Source: Candidatus Thorarchaeota archaeon (GTDB lineage Archaea; Asgardarchaeota; Thorarchaeia; Thorarchaeales; Thorarchaeaceae). Taken from it: 64,000 bases of DNA. Under the pieces are notes generated by a model. The model was not told where the DNA came from. It did not search any database and saw nothing but the letters and a program-made list of their open reading frames with translations. The DNA is taken from the NCBI GenBank assembly GCA_048882045.1, contig JBHLRZ010000001.1, forward strand, positions 1 to 64,000, given 5' to 3'. Shown here piece by piece: positions 6,607 through 53,741 of this stretch. The position numbers were made by a program, and so were the translations under genes. How positions within the stretch are numbered: the stretch's first letter is position 1; each line of letters starts with the position of its first letter.

Positions 6607-7841
6607 AGAGCAGGAAAAAGACCTCCAACAATGGAAAAAAGACAGTCTGGCTTTTGAAGAAAGAGGTCAAATCAGTCCTACGCTCAAGATGGCTCCTCTT
6701 CGGATTCATGATCAGTCCCCTGTTCGCCTGGCTTTTCCAGGGAGTGTTCCTCAACTTTCTCTTTGCCACAGCAGTGGAACCAGAGTTTGTTTACATTACA
6801 AACGAGGATGGCCTTAGTGGCAACAGTACGTGGGGAGACTATCTGTACAATAGTATCCACGCTCGGTTTGAGTATGAGAAGGGAATTGCTGACGAACAGA
6901 AGTGGCTGAACTATAGGAACCTCACGACCGTCAGTTCAAGTGATGGGATGGCGTTATGGGACAATAGAACAGCGGCTGTCTGGATACTGATACCTGCAAA
7001 CTTCACAGAAGTCTTCGAGAACTTCAATGTTACAACGCTAACCATCTATGTCAATTCAGGAAGCTTCAGAGCTTCAGCAGCGTTCGAAAGAACCAAGAGC
7101 TTTACACAGTACTTGATGAGAGCTACTGACCTCTTGGTACAGCAGATCAGTCCCCCTTCAACTGAAGCGAGCTACGGGCATCAACTTGCCATCTTTCTTG
7201 TCATGATAACTTCTGTCATGGCACCAAGTCCCTACATCAGCAAGTCGTTTGCAGGAGAGAGAGAGCAACACACTCTAGAGGCATTGCTCGTGGTCCCAAT
7301 AAGTAGACTGAGGATTCTAGGTGCGAAACTTGCAGCAGGACTGCTCCTGACAATGATATATTCATCTTTTACAGTTGTGGGGATATTACTATACAATGCT
7401 TTGGTTGCAGTCAGAGGTGCTGGAAGTCTAAATGCTGAGAGTCAGATTGGGTTCTACAGTGTTGCACCTGCTAACATTCCCCTGATCTTCTTCTGCCAGT
7501 TCTTGATACTTCTCTGCGCAATCGGGATTGGTGTAGTCATCTCAACCATGGCAAAAGACCAAGCGACTGCAGAGTCAATCAATAACTTGGTACTCCTTGT
7601 TCCAACAATGGTCATTGGAATACTTGGCTTTGCAGGCAGTATCAGTCAGGTTGGTGGGTTGTTTGGTCTGTTTGTGTACTTGATACCGTTCAGTCATGCG
7701 ATAATGTTTCTCAATGGAGTGTTGTCACCAGCTCCGAACGCTTTTCTATTGACCATTAACGTGGTTTACATGCTAGCTTTCACGATGGTCTTCCTGATTA
7801 TCGGAGCTAAGGCGTTCGAGAGAGAGGCCATCATTGCCTAG
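6603..7841 (+). CDS. ABC-2 type permease (NatB-like)
   Basis: Overlaps ATPase stop (ATGA); N-terminal TM, extracellular loop with N-x-S/T sites, GEREQHTLEALLVVP motif, several TMs. Confidence 0.88.
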   Translation: MKSRKKTSNNGKKTVWLLKKEVKSVLRSRWLLFGFMISPLFAWLFQGVFLNFLFATAVEPEFVYITNEDGLSGNSTWGDYLYNSIHARFEYEKGIADEQKWLNYRNLTTVSSSDGMALWDNRTAAVWILIPANFTEVFENFNVTTLTIYVNSGSFRASAAFERTKSFTQYLMRATDLLVQQISPPSTEASYGHQLAIFLVMITSVMAPSPYISKSFAGEREQHTLEALLVVPISRLRILGAKLAAGLLLTMIYSSFTVVGILLYNALVAVRGAGSLNAESQIGFYSVAPANIPLIFFCQFLILLCAIGIGVVISTMAKDQATAESINNLVLLVPTMVIGILGFAGSISQVGGLFGLFVYLIPFSHAIMFLNGVLSPAPNAFLLTINVVYMLAFTMVFLIIGAKAFEREAIIA

Positions 7842-34299: not shown

Positions 34300-34563
34300 A
34301 TGACAGACCTGTATCTAGAAGACTATGGGTCCAAAGAAAAGGAAGATATCTGTTGGCAAACAATAGGTGTTCTCTGTGTGGTCATAATTGGGTTTGTCTT
34401 GTTCTATATGGTCTATACATCACTCTGGGAGCTGATGCTTCCAGCAATTTCAGATCGTGGTCTTGAACTAACAAGTCTAGGATTGATTTTTGGAGTAATA
34501 TTAGTAGTCTATATTGTCAGAAGCAAGTCACTAGAGAAAAGGAAGATAATGGCGGCTTCCTAA
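34300..34563 (+). CDS. Small 2-TM membrane protein
   Basis: GAGGAG SD, two hydrophobic segments; last codons overlap the 3' end of the tRNA-Sec antisense. Confidence 0.6.
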   Translation: MTDLYLEDYGSKEKEDICWQTIGVLCVVIIGFVLFYMVYTSLWELMLPAISDRGLELTSLGLIFGVILVVYIVRSKSLEKRKIMAAS

Positions 34564-34640
34564 GAGAATCGAACTCTCAACGCTTGCACCTTCACGGGTT
34601 TGAAGTCCGTGGGACCAGACCACCGTTCCTGTAGAAGGCC
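34550..34640 (-). tRNA. selC: tRNA-Sec (anticodon UCA), 9/4 fold, probably degenerating
   Basis: GGCCTTCTA-CA-GGAACGG TGGT CTGGTCC-CACGGA CTTCAAA CCCGTG-AAGGT GCAA GCGTT-G-AGAG TTCGATT CTCT-TAGGAAGCC-GCCA: 9-bp acceptor, 7-bp D stem with 4-nt loop, long variable arm, 4-bp T stem, G discriminator, encoded CCA. Confidence 0.92.
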
Positions 34641-34666: not shown

Positions 34667-35314
34667 CTAAATGTAACGACCAATAATGTTCTGAGTTTCC
34701 CGTTTCCATTCTATACTCTTCTTAGCGAGTTCAGAAGCGATATTTCCAGGCATTGTTTCATCACGAGGAAGTGATTCGATTTTCGATAGCCATGCTGCAG
34801 TTGTGAGTGTGGTTGACGGGATACTCTCCTCACCCTCGGTTGCTTTGATTATCATCTCCCTCCCATGTGCCACCTGAACATAGACATCGTTCACAGGGGC
34901 TTTAGCGAGAATTTCTTTGATAACTCTGTCCCAACAGGTCTTTGCAACCAGTGCTTTCTTGAGTTTGGATCTGTCATTCTCAGATAATGCCTGATACTTT
35001 GAGAGTGTAGCATCCATTGCTTGGATGTGATCATCAACATAGACTGAGAGTGCGACCTCATCATGTCCCATTGCTGTTAGTTCAACAGCAGCCTGTGCTT
35101 TTGTCACTTGAATCGCAGCATGTGCTTCTTCACCTGCAATTCTGAGGGAAAACTTTGCAGACCCGTGGAAATCCTGACTCTCTGCCTCACTATGTTCTTC
35201 TAAAATCAGATTGGGTTTGGATGCAACAACATACCAAGCCAGTCTGAAAACAATGTCAGGATCAACGCTGCTGTAGTTGAGTTTGCGAGAGACCTCGGTC
35301 ATTTCTTCATTCAT
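34667..35314 (-). CDS. Hypothetical protein inside the Sec locus
   Basis: Intact 215-aa ORF, GGGAGGG SD; no recognised motif. Confidence 0.7.
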   Translation of the reverse strand: MNEEMTEVSRKLNYSSVDPDIVFRLAWYVVASKPNLILEEHSEAESQDFHGSAKFSLRIAGEEAHAAIQVTKAQAAVELTAMGHDEVALSVYVDDHIQAMDATLSKYQALSENDRSKLKKALVAKTCWDRVIKEILAKAPVNDVYVQVAHGREMIIKATEGEESIPSTTLTTAAWLSKIESLPRDETMPGNIASELAKKSIEWKRETQNIIGRYI

Positions 35315-35346: not shown

Positions 35347-35430
35347 CTACTTACTGGCCTCCTTATAGAGTTTAGTTGTGGCTGTCTCCACATCGTTTTT
35401 TGAGGCGCCAATGGCTGCATTCATAACAAT
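35347..35430 (-). pseudogene. spcS: C-terminal remnant of O-phosphoseryl-tRNA(Sec) selenium transferase (SepSecS) fused to the selB fragment
   Basis: IVMNAAIGASKNDVETATTKLYKEASK* resembles the SepSecS C-terminal (Y)IVMNAAIG-x4-D-[VI]-x5-KL motif as recalled from methanococcal/eukaryotic enzymes; not SelB-like. Confidence 0.7.
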
Positions 35431-35740
35431 GTGTTCTCCAGTTTGGACCATTGGACCTTCATCTGCTGCAATAACAATGATTGCTCCATCAATAATGTTG
35501 GCACCAGCAACGACACTCCTGATAAGATCAGCGTGTCCTGGAGCGTCAACTAGAGTGACTGGAATCCGTCAAGTTCCAAAATTGTAAAGCCAAGATAGAT
35601 GGTAATTCCCCGTTTCTTGGCTTGAGGGTGTTTGTCCAGTCCAGCGGTTGAAACTTTCTTGCGCATTGCTTTTGCTAAGGCGTTTTACCATGGTCAATGT
35701 GACTCATGAGCCCAACATGCACTGGAACGAGACTACCCAT
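35425..35740 (-). pseudogene. selB: Selenocysteine-specific elongation factor SelB/eEFSec, N-terminal G-domain fragment with two frameshifts
   Basis: Reconstructed: MGSLVPVHVGLMSHIDHGKT/ALAKAMRKKVSTAGLDKHPQAKKRGITIYLGFTILELDGF/VTLVDAPGHADLIRSVVAGANIIDGAIIVIAADEGPMVQTGEHIV; ends before NKxD. Confidence 0.9.
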
Positions 35741-35825
35741 TTCTGAACTTCAAATGTGGCTGGTGGAATTGAACATAAAACCAGTGTCAGAGGACTTTAT
35801 TGGGACGATTGCTGAATCAAAGGCT

Positions 35826-36251
35826 ATGGTATCACGGTCGTTAGAGAAGATGTTGCTTATTGCAATAGGTCTCTCGACAGCAGTCATTATTGGTGTTCCA
35901 GTCTTGTTGTATGCTATTGAAACGATAAACACGACCACTCAGTTGCAGGAAGCACAATTGGCAGCAGAACTGATTCATAATGCCACAAACACAGTAGATA
36001 CTGGAATCTCCAATTCAACTGCAATCACCATTTGGATCCCCAGAGGAGCGGTTGTATCAGCTGTGGGGAACACTCTTACAGTATCTTTCGCAGAAATAAC
36101 AGAATCATGGACTGAAACATACAATCATGAAATATCAGTTGATGACCCTCCGTTTAATCCTGAAGGCCAATTACTCTATACGATAGAAGTTGTCATGATT
36201 GGAGATGTCATTCACATCGCCTTTGACGCAGTCCCAACATACCGTACTTGA
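35826..36251 (+). CDS. Archaeal pilin-like / class III signal peptide protein
   Basis: MVSR|SLE followed by a hydrophobic helix, then a small beta-rich domain with N-x-T sites. Confidence 0.5.
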   Translation: MVSRSLEKMLLIAIGLSTAVIIGVPVLLYAIETINTTTQLQEAQLAAELIHNATNTVDTGISNSTAITIWIPRGAVVSAVGNTLTVSFAEITESWTETYNHEISVDDPPFNPEGQLLYTIEVVMIGDVIHIAFDAVPTYRT

Positions 36252-51182: not shown

Positions 51183-53741
51183 ATGACCTCAAGTGACCCC
51201 AAAGGACAGGCTGAATCAGCCGAAATCGAGGTAGTGTCTACTGATTCCGAACTACGTATCGGTGTGTTTCCTTGTATGTGTGGTAAGAACATCGGTGCAG
51301 TTGTTGACATAGAAGCTGTGGCCGAGTACGCACGGACACTCCCAGGAGTCGTATTTGTTCAGGTGAATCGTTACACCTGTGCTGACCCTGGTCAACGAGA
51401 AATAGAGGATGCAATCAAAGAGTATGGTCTCAATCGAATAGTAGTTGCATCATGCAGTCCAACTATGCATGAAGACACCTTCCGAAAGGCAGTGAGATCA
51501 GCGGGACTCAACCCATATCTATGTATCATGGCAAACATCCGTGAACATGTTTCATGGGTACATCGAGAAGATCCTGTTGCTGCAACAGAGAAGGCGAAGG
51601 ATTTAGTTGCCATGTCTGTAGCTAAGGCTGCAACACTAGAAGCGCAGAAGGAGCTGGATGTTCCAGTGACTCAAGCTGCGCTAGTTGTAGGAGCTGGTGT
51701 TGCAGGTATGCAAGCAGCTCTTGACTTGGCGGATTCTGGATTCAAAGTCAACTTGGTTGAAAGAGAACCCACGATAGGCGGCATAATGGCGATACTGGAC
51801 AAAGTGTTTCCACAGAATGACTGTTCCATCTGTATCCTAGGACCTAAAATGGTAGATGTGGCCAAGCATCCAAATATCAATCTGATAACATTGGCTGAGG
51901 TCGAGTCCATTTCAGGATATGTAGGAAACTTCGACGTCAGAGTGAAGCAACGGGCGCGTTATGTAGATATCGACAAGTGTACAGCATGCGGGGATTGTGT
52001 CGAGGTTTGTCCAGTGGATGTTCCCAGTAGGACTGATCAGAGTCTGACTTGGCAGAAAGCGATCCAAATCCCATTTCCACAAGCTGTCCCATCATCTTAC
52101 TTCATTGATCATGATTCTTGTCTTGGAATGGACCTGATTAGATGCGGAAAGTGCATCGACAGGTGCGAACAGGAAGCGATTGTGTCGTCGGACACTGCAC
52201 GCTACATCGATTTCGAAGTTGGTGTCATCATTCTGGCAACAGGATTCCATCCTGCTAGTCCAGAGAAGATACCACGCCTTGGATGGGGCAGATATCCCAA
52301 CGTCATCACCTCGCTCGAGTTTGAACGTCTGATCAACGCTGCAGGACCTACTGAAGGAAAGCTTGTGAGACCCTCAGACCTGGCAAAGCCACAATCTGTA
52401 GCAATTGCTCAGTGTGTCGGGTCACGCAGCATAGACACGCGAATCAATTGCTCGAATTTCTGTTGTGCGGAGTCGATTAAGTGTGCACTTCTCATTAAGG
52501 AACACTATCCTGACACTGAAGTCACAATATACTATCAGGATCTGAGGATGCATGGCAAGTATTTTGAAGAACAGTATCTCAAGGCCCGAGAAGAGGGGAT
52601 CAAATTTGTTCGGGGTCGTGTTGGAGAGATACAACAATATCCCAAGACAAAGAACCTGAGAGTGAGTGTAGAAGACACGACTCACAACAAGTTAGAGATG
52701 CTTGAGTACGACATGGTAATTCTGTCTATGGGTGCTGAAGGCCAGTCAGGGAACTTCCCTATACCGATATCCTGCACCTCAGACTCATTCTACATTGAGT
52801 CACATCCCAAACTGAGACCCGTTGATACGAGCTCAGCAGGAGTGTTCATTTGCGGAGGAGCTGAAAGTCCCAAGGACATTCGTGACTCGGTCATTCAGGC
52901 GAGTGCTGCGGCAGGACGCGCTGCGATTATTCTACAGAAGGGCAGATATCCCATCGAAGCACTCAGCGCTCGTATCATGCAAGACAAATGCAATCGTTGT
53001 GGTACATGTGTGAAGCGATGTCCGTACGGTGCTATCTCACAGGATGGTACAGGTAAGTACACAGTGACAGGGGCTCTCTGTCAAGCATGCGGCACATGTG
53101 CTGGAGACTGTCCACAAGATGCCATTTACATGCCCAATTTCACAACCCAACAGATTGAGGCTCAGATAGAGATCGCTCTTGCTGAGAATCCTGAAAAGAA
53201 GATAGTGGCCTTCGCATGCAACTACTGTTCCTACCGGGGATCTGACCTCGCAGGTGTTTCAAGGATGCAGTATCCTACCAATGCTCGAGTCATACGAACG
53301 ATTTGTTCAGGGAGGTATTCTACCAAGTTCGCTCAGAAGGCCTTCGAGCTGGGTGCTGGTGCTGTGCTCTATTCAGGTTGTCACCTTCCAGCAGACTGTC
53401 ACTTTCAAACGGGAAACCATTGGATGGCCAAGCGAGAGCCACGGATTAGAGGTTGGATGAAGCGGAATAACATTGATGATGAACGATTTAGAGTTGAGTG
53501 GGTTTCTGCAAGTGAGGGAAAGAAGTGGCAGGGCATCATGACAGAGTTGGCGACTGTAGTTGAGAAACAAGAGATGAGTAAGCCTAAGCCAAAGAAGCCG
53601 ATTACAAAATCCAAGAAGAAGACACAACCAAAAACGAAGGAAAAGCCGAAGAAAAAGACAGCAACTAAAGCGAAAAAGACGACGAAGGCAAGGAGTGTTG
53701 GTGTTAAGAAGACGAGTACGACTAAGAAAGGAGGGAAGTGA
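51183..53741 (+). CDS. hdrA: Heterodisulfide reductase subunit A fused to MvhD, with Lys-rich tail
   Basis: CMCGKNI, CSP..HE..FR, GAGVAG, DKVFPQNDCSIC, QCVGSR, ESHPKLRP, PKDI; MvhD part FACNYCSY..D, CSGR, GCH..DCHF. Confidence 0.93.
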   Translation: MTSSDPKGQAESAEIEVVSTDSELRIGVFPCMCGKNIGAVVDIEAVAEYARTLPGVVFVQVNRYTCADPGQREIEDAIKEYGLNRIVVASCSPTMHEDTFRKAVRSAGLNPYLCIMANIREHVSWVHREDPVAATEKAKDLVAMSVAKAATLEAQKELDVPVTQAALVVGAGVAGMQAALDLADSGFKVNLVEREPTIGGIMAILDKVFPQNDCSICILGPKMVDVAKHPNINLITLAEVESISGYVGNFDVRVKQRARYVDIDKCTACGDCVEVCPVDVPSRTDQSLTWQKAIQIPFPQAVPSSYFIDHDSCLGMDLIRCGKCIDRCEQEAIVSSDTARYIDFEVGVIILATGFHPASPEKIPRLGWGRYPNVITSLEFERLINAAGPTEGKLVRPSDLAKPQSVAIAQCVGSRSIDTRINCSNFCCAESIKCALLIKEHYPDTEVTIYYQDLRMHGKYFEEQYLKAREEGIKFVRGRVGEIQQYPKTKNLRVSVEDTTHNKLEMLEYDMVILSMGAEGQSGNFPIPISCTSDSFYIESHPKLRPVDTSSAGVFICGGAESPKDIRDSVIQASAAAGRAAIILQKGRYPIEALSARIMQDKCNRCGTCVKRCPYGAISQDGTGKYTVTGALCQACGTCAGDCPQDAIYMPNFTTQQIEAQIEIALAENPEKKIVAFACNYCSYRGSDLAGVSRMQYPTNARVIRTICSGRYSTKFAQKAFELGAGAVLYSGCHLPADCHFQTGNHWMAKREPRIRGWMKRNNIDDERFRVEWVSASEGKKWQGIMTELATVVEKQEMSKPKPKKPITKSKKKTQPKTKEKPKKKTATKAKKTTKARSVGVKKTSTTKKGGK

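Follow-up and report, generated by a model that had tools for sequence, protein, structure and literature searches.

Losses of the selenocysteine (Sec) utilization trait have occurred in bacteria and eukaryotes generally, as well as in Asgard archaea. Most Asgard archaea use Sec, with parallel loss in some clades (PMC11227280, ISME J 2024). An Asgard-only hypothetical protein, MBD3157761.1, is associated with the Sec pathway and has secS, efSec, and pstk as its neighbors (PMC11227280). Archaeal SelB, also known as EFSec, is represented by the family TIGR00475, by the domains PF00009, PF03144, and PF21440 (aSelB_III), and by the structure 4ac9. Here, we analyzed a stretch of 64,000 nucleotides (the window) from Candidatus Thorarchaeota archaeon (assembly GCA_048882045.1, contig JBHLRZ010000001.1, positions 1 to 64,000), in which inspection of the sequence had pointed to a selB remnant with several lesions (the original prediction). 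The remnant shares with archaeal SelB the order of motifs G1 to G3, the RGITID signature, the sequence DAPGHADLIR, and the syntenic place next to SepSecS. It differs from a functional SelB in covering 23% of the gene and in scoring 56 bits, below the cut-off of 242, i.e., it is a relic by descent. From the analyses below we conclude with high confidence that the remnant is a genuine pseudogene of selB (archaeal EFSec), located in a Sec gene island that collapsed in this Thorarchaeota lineage. In the following, G000 denotes this genome, G004 and other G numbers its congeners, and L119 to L124 metagenomic relatives.

Reading frames, lesions, and identity of the selB remnant

The reverse strand of 35425 to 35740 corresponds to codons 1 to 106 of archaeal SelB, spread over three successive frames (Table 1). 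Both frameshifts consist of one base lost relative to every intact ortholog, and no homopolymer longer than 2 occurs at either site. They had been predicted after HGKT and after LDGF, and alignment to 19 intact orthologs locates them in codons 21 and 61. At codon 61 the placement of the gap is ambiguous, with a pairwise aligner putting it a few bases off, at 35567/35568; the frame B stretch can also be written LAKAM...LDKHPQAKKRGITIYLGFTILELDGF, preceding the 2-base remnant of this codon.

Table 1. Features of the collapsed Sec island and its surroundings in the window
Feature	Position	Strand	Basis
PSTK remnant, ~12 to 16 N-terminal codons joined to ~18 C-terminal codons	34192-34290	+	tblastn; blastn to L120
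Small hydrophobic ORF, 87 aa, intact	34300-34563	+	87 to 90 aa in L071, L072, L120, and L122; omega ~0.19
tRNA-Sec, anticodon UCA, decaying	34554-34640	-	RF01852, 46.0 bits (gathering score 47)
Sel_Asgard, 215 aa, intact, "putative selenocysteine system protein"	34667-35314	-	NF045535, 212 bits (cut-off 132)
SepSecS, last 25 codons MNAAIGASKNDVETATTKLYKEASK and its own stop (35347-35349), in frame with frame C	35347-35424	-	tblastn
Deletion junction ATTGTT (Ile-Val), common to SelB codons 105-106 and SepSecS codons 412-413	35425-35430	-	Alignment to orthologs
selB remnant, codons 62-106, frame C, VTLVDAPGHADLIR...QTGEHIV, including G3 DAPGH	35425-35559	-	TIGR00475, 56 bits; PF00009
Broken codon 61 (Leu/Met in orthologs; CA remains), second 1-nt deletion	35560-35561	-	Alignment to intact orthologs
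selB remnant, codons 22-60, frame B, LAKAM...RGITIYLGFTILELDGF	35562-35678	-	TIGR00475 as sole family match
Broken codon 21 (Ala, GCC to CC), first 1-nt deletion	35679-35680	-	19/19 intact orthologs read HGKT-A-LA
selB remnant, codons 1-20, frame A, MGSLVPVHVGLMSHIDHGKT	35681-35740	-	tblastn to G004 SelB aa 1-30
TATA-like GGTTTTATG, ending 33 nt upstream of the selB ATG, predicted promoter	35774-35782	-	Alignment

Two residue changes read from the sequence, SHIDHGKT for GHIDHGKT in the P loop and RGITIYLGF for RGITIDLGF in switch I, were recovered as G13S and D49Y, each at a column that is invariant in the 19 intact congeneric SelBs. Altogether, 6 of 73 invariant columns are replaced in the stump (G13S, S27R, D49Y, M54I, F55L, and L89I), compared with zero to three violations (median, 0) per intact ortholog in a leave-one-out analysis of the 19 SelBs. 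Regarding the GTPase motifs, G1 reads SHIDHGKT and switch I reads RGITIY, G3 (DxPGH) is intact, and G4 and G5 are deleted. The absence of G4, which is TKxD in the genus, and of domains II to IV had been noted as well and follows from the fact that SelB homology stops at 35425, after codon 106; domains II and III are thus missing together with the tRNA-Sec-binding domain IV of archaea. With a mutated G1, two breaks in the frame, and no G4, G5, or domains II to IV, the stump cannot encode a GTPase. Programmed recoding, in which translation would pass both frameshifts and yield a short but functional protein resembling a GTPase, has the contiguity of the three pieces in its favor and nothing else. 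We regard it as barely credible, given the replacement of the first P-loop glycine and of the D in RGITID, the absence of G4, G5, and domains II to IV, the lack of a frameshift at these sites in any ortholog, and the deletion of the pathway partners.

TIGR00475 (selB) is the top NCBIfam match for frame B (18.5 bits) as well as for frame C, GTP_EFTU is the sole Pfam match of the stump, and the top PDB match is 4ac9, the SelB of Methanococcus maripaludis. Piece by piece, the stump shows 63 to 89% identity to G004 SelB, encoded at the exact syntenic position in this congener; the upper value belongs to codons 62 to 106, aligned by tblastn to amino acids 62 to 107. An isolated piece of 70 amino acids scores nearly equally against the selB and EF-Tu models (56 versus 54 bits), as might be expected of a fragment from another translational GTPase, i.e., aIF2-gamma, EF1A, or a GTPBP1-like protein. 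Such an origin is nevertheless extremely improbable in view of the identity to the syntenic G004 SelB. Moreover, the EF1A (contig C11), aIF2-gamma (contig C2), and GTPBP1-like (contig C3) genes of this genome are intact and 26 to 29% identical to G004 SelB, and in all congeners the nucleotide homology continues beyond the stump into the region upstream of selB. The assignment to SelB rather than to aIF2-gamma or EF-1alpha therefore stands, with selB as best family and PDB match, conserved synteny, and 63 to 89% versus 27 to 29% identity. On contig C3, at 892 to 2556 on the forward strand, lies the paralog L003, a 554-aa translational GTPase with an N-terminal extension of ~120 aa that is possibly GTPBP1-like and is unrelated to selB.

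The genome, a MAG, consists of 93 contigs, and the gene could in principle be intact in the organism, with the indels and the deletion being sequencing errors or a chimeric join. We consider such an artifact very improbable. The exact Sel_Asgard protein was found in two other NCBI MAGs, GCA_048882745.1 and GCA_048882285.1, and in two Logan assemblies of different SRA runs, SRR24270831 and SRR30758836. Over the 1.7 to 2.2 kb that cover the stump, all four match the window at 99.95 to 100% identity and without a gap. It is possible that the two NCBI MAGs were assembled from samples that also gave this genome; the two Logan assemblies are independent, and the presence of the same indels and the same deletion in all four therefore speaks against an assembly error. 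In addition, the indels lie outside homopolymers, the six flanking genes are intact, and PSTK, selD, and tRNA-Sec are damaged independently at other places. Real pseudogenization, which the original prediction had favored over read error, is thus supported by assemblies of separate SRA runs. The 72-aa "GTP_EFTU" ORF at the stump site in public MAGs deserves to be flagged as a pseudogene fragment.

The ancestral Sec island and the deletion junction

The island has the order TFIIB, PSTK, small ORF, tRNA-Sec, Sel_Asgard, SepSecS, and SelB in 22 of the 25 congeners with the locus assembled, and a collapsed locus was found in G000, G012, and G020 alone. In G004, the locus comprises TFIIB, PSTK (TIGR03574), tRNA-Sec (58 bits), Sel_Asgard, SepSecS (TIGR03531, 445 bits), and a SelB of 460 aa (TIGR00475, 307 bits), beyond which lie the flanking genes p133, NapH-like, ModE-like, and AIRS-like. 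SelB exceeds the TIGR00475 cut-off in 19 of 27 other genomes of the genus, with scores of 267 to 311 bits among congeners. A small ORF of ~90 aa is located between PSTK and tRNA-Sec in L120 and L122, and its counterpart in the window yielded no family match over cut-off. The six flanks (TFIIB, Sel_Asgard, and the p133-like, NapH-like, ModE-like, and AIRS-like genes) align over their full length to orthologs and contain no stops, in agreement with the intact surroundings described earlier. An ORF of 181 aa that is called in public MAGs (35706 to 36251, forward strand) overlaps the start of the selB stump; in its orthologs (133 to 162 aa) the alignment starts only at the ATG of position 35826, and the call is therefore probably too long at its 5' end. 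The ancestor carried the island typical of the genus, with PSTK, small ORF, tRNA-Sec, Sel_Asgard, SepSecS, and SelB, together with a Sec-containing selD elsewhere.

At its 3' end, the selB stump runs directly into the tail of SepSecS, which was compared with the C termini of nine intact orthologs and is 89% identical to amino acids 412 to 439 of G004 SepSecS (tblastn). A "V to M" change after GEHIV, first read as a substitution, turned out to be the position of this junction instead. The sequence missing at 35425/35424 amounts to 2299 nt by comparison with G004 and to ~2292 nt by comparison with L120, where the two alignments overlap by 7 nt, and spans SelB codon 107 to SepSecS codon 411. G004 reads ATT GTT (Ile105-Val106) in selB and ATT GTA (Ile412-Val413) in SepSecS; therefore, a microhomology of 5 to 6 nt, ATTGT(T/A), brackets the deletion. 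This suggests that the deletion of ~2.3 kb, which removed SelB codons 107 to 460 and SepSecS codons 1 to 411 and fused the stumps in frame, was mediated by microhomology.

Remains of the other Sec genes

SepSecS, PSTK, and SelD are deleted in this genome, and tRNA-Sec is degenerate. Family searches of the 93%-complete assembly yielded no selB, SepSecS, PSTK, or selD over cut-off, and tblastn with the SelB, SepSecS, and PSTK proteins of G004 returned stumps only. PSTK has suffered an internal deletion of 659 nt relative to L120, by which the P-loop kinase body was lost; the N-terminal piece of the stump matches amino acids 5 to 20 of G004 PSTK with an E value of 1.7e-5, while the match of the C-terminal piece is weak (E = 0.05, tblastn).

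In the genus, selD is over cut-off in 24 of 28 genomes, the exceptions being G000, G012, G020, and G022, and in 22 congeners it contains an in-frame TGA (motif GUSCK in G004). The syntenic selD site of this genome is assembled on contig C9 (~7300 to 7650), where the flanking genes are intact and 91 to 94% identical and ~1 kb is excised. Low-stringency tblastn over positions 7200 to 7750 of this contig revealed no convincing selD remnant. G022 has an intact PSTK-SepSecS-SelB island and no selD over cut-off, which may be an assembly gap because its assembly is 87% complete.

The tRNA-Sec gene, which scores 58 to 60.6 bits in Sec-retaining relatives, carries five private substitutions compared with its nearest functional relatives. 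Three of these (G35A, C51G, and G84A) break pairs, namely C4.A84 in the acceptor stem, A35.C43 in the anticodon stem, and G51.G60 in the variable arm; changes among functional relatives, by contrast, are compensatory or lead to wobble pairs. ARAGORN reported no tRNA at 34554 to 34640, and the gene was found by the Rfam model alone. The A15 mismatch was considered as a further lesion and rejected, as it is also present in functional tRNAs of the nearest Sec-retaining relatives. In the other Sec-loss genomes, the tRNA-Sec relic scores 37.6 bits (G020) or is deleted (G012).

Matches to the FlpD/MvhD domain contained no internal stops in any genome examined. Two hdrA-frhD clusters of G004 have no ortholog in this genome, where paralog-level matches were found at most. 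G004 (L106 and L111) and G016 (L105, L110, and L115) possess two to three extra small FlpD/FrhD-like genes (168 to 186 bits) beside HdrA-like genes, some of which end with ...K-TGA-Q-stop, with TGA as a putative Sec codon. These extra genes are missing from all three Sec-loss genomes, and G000 has just paralogs of 38 to 50% identity. They may be selenoprotein genes that were lost. The window also contains an HdrA-MvhD fusion (~51183 to 53741) with an open frame of 866 aa, the orthologs of which are uninterrupted (864 to 897 aa) in Sec-retaining G004 and G016, where the positions considered included G004:C4:26308-26667 and its orthologs; its Cys codons are therefore no Sec-to-Cys replacement tied to the loss.

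These remains suggest an order of events in which selection on the machinery would cease once Sec decoding was no longer needed. Besides the fusion of selB and SepSecS, a 659-nt deletion would gut PSTK and ~1 kb with selD would be excised from contig C9. The selB stump would then gain its two 1-nt deletions and six replacements of invariant residues, the first P-loop glycine included, and tRNA-Sec would gain three pair-breaking substitutions.

Selective constraint and age of the loss

Nei-Gojobori dN/dS was determined against G004 and G002 and then against the closer L120 and L122. The pairwise omega of the stump was 0.04 (L120) and 0.11 (L122), with dS saturated at 1.0 to 2.1 over ~106 codons; between this genome and every intact relative available, dS is about 1 or higher. 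The dN/dS near 1 that had been anticipated was thus not obtained with the closest intact orthologs; omega is low because the comparison has reached saturation and mostly reflects changes that predate the loss. The pairwise test was replaced by a three-taxon split (this genome, L120, and L122) together with the leave-one-out analysis of invariant columns. For SelB codons 1 to 106, the split assigned 16.5 nonsynonymous differences to the branch of this genome, 2.5 to L120, and 7.5 to L122. The corresponding values were 17.75, 11.75, and 22.25 for Sel_Asgard and 34, 27.5, and 30 for the NapH-like gene. Hence, there is a roughly 3-fold nonsynonymous excess on this branch in SelB and no such excess in Sel_Asgard or NapH. 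It is this branch excess and the replaced invariant columns, at ~106 codons each, that may point to relaxed selection on the stump.

The excess in SelB corresponds to ~11.5 changes at 236 nonsynonymous sites, i.e., ~5%, and tRNA-Sec agrees with this value (5/87). Accordingly, we infer an age of the loss of ~5% neutral divergence, which is recent relative to species divergence. In L119, whose Sel_Asgard is 92% identical to that of this genome, the SepSecS tail still continues into further SepSecS sequence. This places the loss after the split from L119 and after that from metagenomic relatives in which the island is intact.

Independent losses within the genus

A tree of the six flanking genes placed G012 as sister to the Sec-retaining G004 (support 97) and G020 as sister to the Sec-retaining G016 (support 92), with G000 on its own branch. 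In AU tests, a single clade of G000, G012, and G020 was rejected (P = 0.001), as was a grouping of G012 with G020 (P of about 1e-62), and a grouping of G000 with G012 was weakly rejected (P = 0.036). The deletion end-points differ as well, since G012 and G020 are without any selB and keep a longer, badly decayed SepSecS tail. The Sec-loss lineages of the genus are thus probably independent, with at least two and probably three losses.

Sel_Asgard and the region upstream of the stump

Sel_Asgard, presumably the same protein as MBD3157761.1, is full-length in all three Sec-loss genomes (G000, L027 of G012, and L065 of G020), even though it lost neighboring genes on either side. Its omega is 0.06 to 0.08 in pairs of a loss genome and its retaining sister versus 0.08 to 0.10 in retaining pairs, and 1 to 2 of 66 invariant columns are changed in the loss genomes. 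At the indel density of the stump, a neutrally evolving Sel_Asgard would be expected to have ~4 indels, and none was seen. In a sample of 250 genomes of the phylum, scored by family, SepSecS was absent and Sel_Asgard present in most or all members of f12 (0/19 and 19/19, respectively), f3 (0/4 and 3/4), f15 (0/4 and 3/4), and f21 (0/3 and 2/3); in f16, SepSecS was found in 5/5 genomes and Sel_Asgard in 0/5. The sparing in loss lineages and this family distribution therefore provide evidence against a strictly Sec-dependent role. We lean, with some reserve, toward a function of Sel_Asgard that is independent of selenocysteine and selenophosphate, with the link to Sec being inherited synteny or a moonlighting relation. 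Its repeated survival amid deletions of Sec genes is a genetic argument against labeling it a component of the Sec system.

Neither structure prediction nor fold searches pointed to a function of Sel_Asgard. The AF2 model has a mean pLDDT of 70, with residues 141 to 192 below 50. Foldseek retrieved nothing from the PDB at E <= 0.001 and Pfam gave no match, and VIA-align reached Z <= 6.9 with START/AHSA1/KA1-like alpha+beta domains, a range that reflects a common arrangement.

The stump might also be kept as a transcribed spacer that provides an operon promoter and 5' leader for the downstream Sel_Asgard, while being a pseudogene as a coding sequence. For this speak the TATA-like GGTTTTATG, which is kept in SelB-retaining relatives and still present in this genome, the joining of the stump to the SepSecS tail 32 nt before Sel_Asgard, and the purifying selection on the latter. 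However, G012 and G020 have neither selB nor the TATA-like box and retain an intact Sel_Asgard, so this promoter is not required, and the stump gathers indels and replacements like neutral DNA. A role as spacer is therefore unlikely, although it deserves more weight than the other alternatives, and we retain the reading as a decaying selB pseudogene. Farther upstream, the sequence CCCAATAAA (35790 to 35810, reverse strand), situated in the intergenic region that separates selB from the divergent p133-like gene, is the same in all seven aligned genomes and is kept even in the two genomes with selB wholly deleted.

Comparison with known systems

The loss described here resembles that reported for the Sec trait of other Asgard archaea in that the whole set of SelB, SepSecS, PSTK, SelD, and tRNA-Sec goes together (PMC11227280). 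That study inferred loss from absence at the level of clades, and the word "pseudogene" occurs nowhere in its main text, whereas here the scars are readable. Furthermore, the loss can be placed within one genus, in which the island persists in 22 of the 25 species whose locus is assembled, while the other three have each lost it on their own. The locus is a concrete, datable instance of known gene decay and does not involve a new mechanism. While loss of the 21st amino acid is commonly deduced from missing genes, the present case offers breakpoints, a junction with microhomology, a datable stump, and a tRNA-Sec that is losing its stems. A genus that mostly keeps the pathway thus provides a natural series of states before and after the loss, with which one can ask what permits an Asgard archaeon to dispense with selenoproteins. 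Compared with the Sec neighborhood of Lokiarchaeota and other Asgard archaea, the ancestral island shows the same association of secS, efSec, and pstk with the Asgard-only protein. In contrast to that neighborhood, in this genome as well as in G012 and G020 the Asgard-only protein outlives the deleted Sec genes, and this survival of a neighbor beyond its pathway is the point that the locus adds to the known loss.
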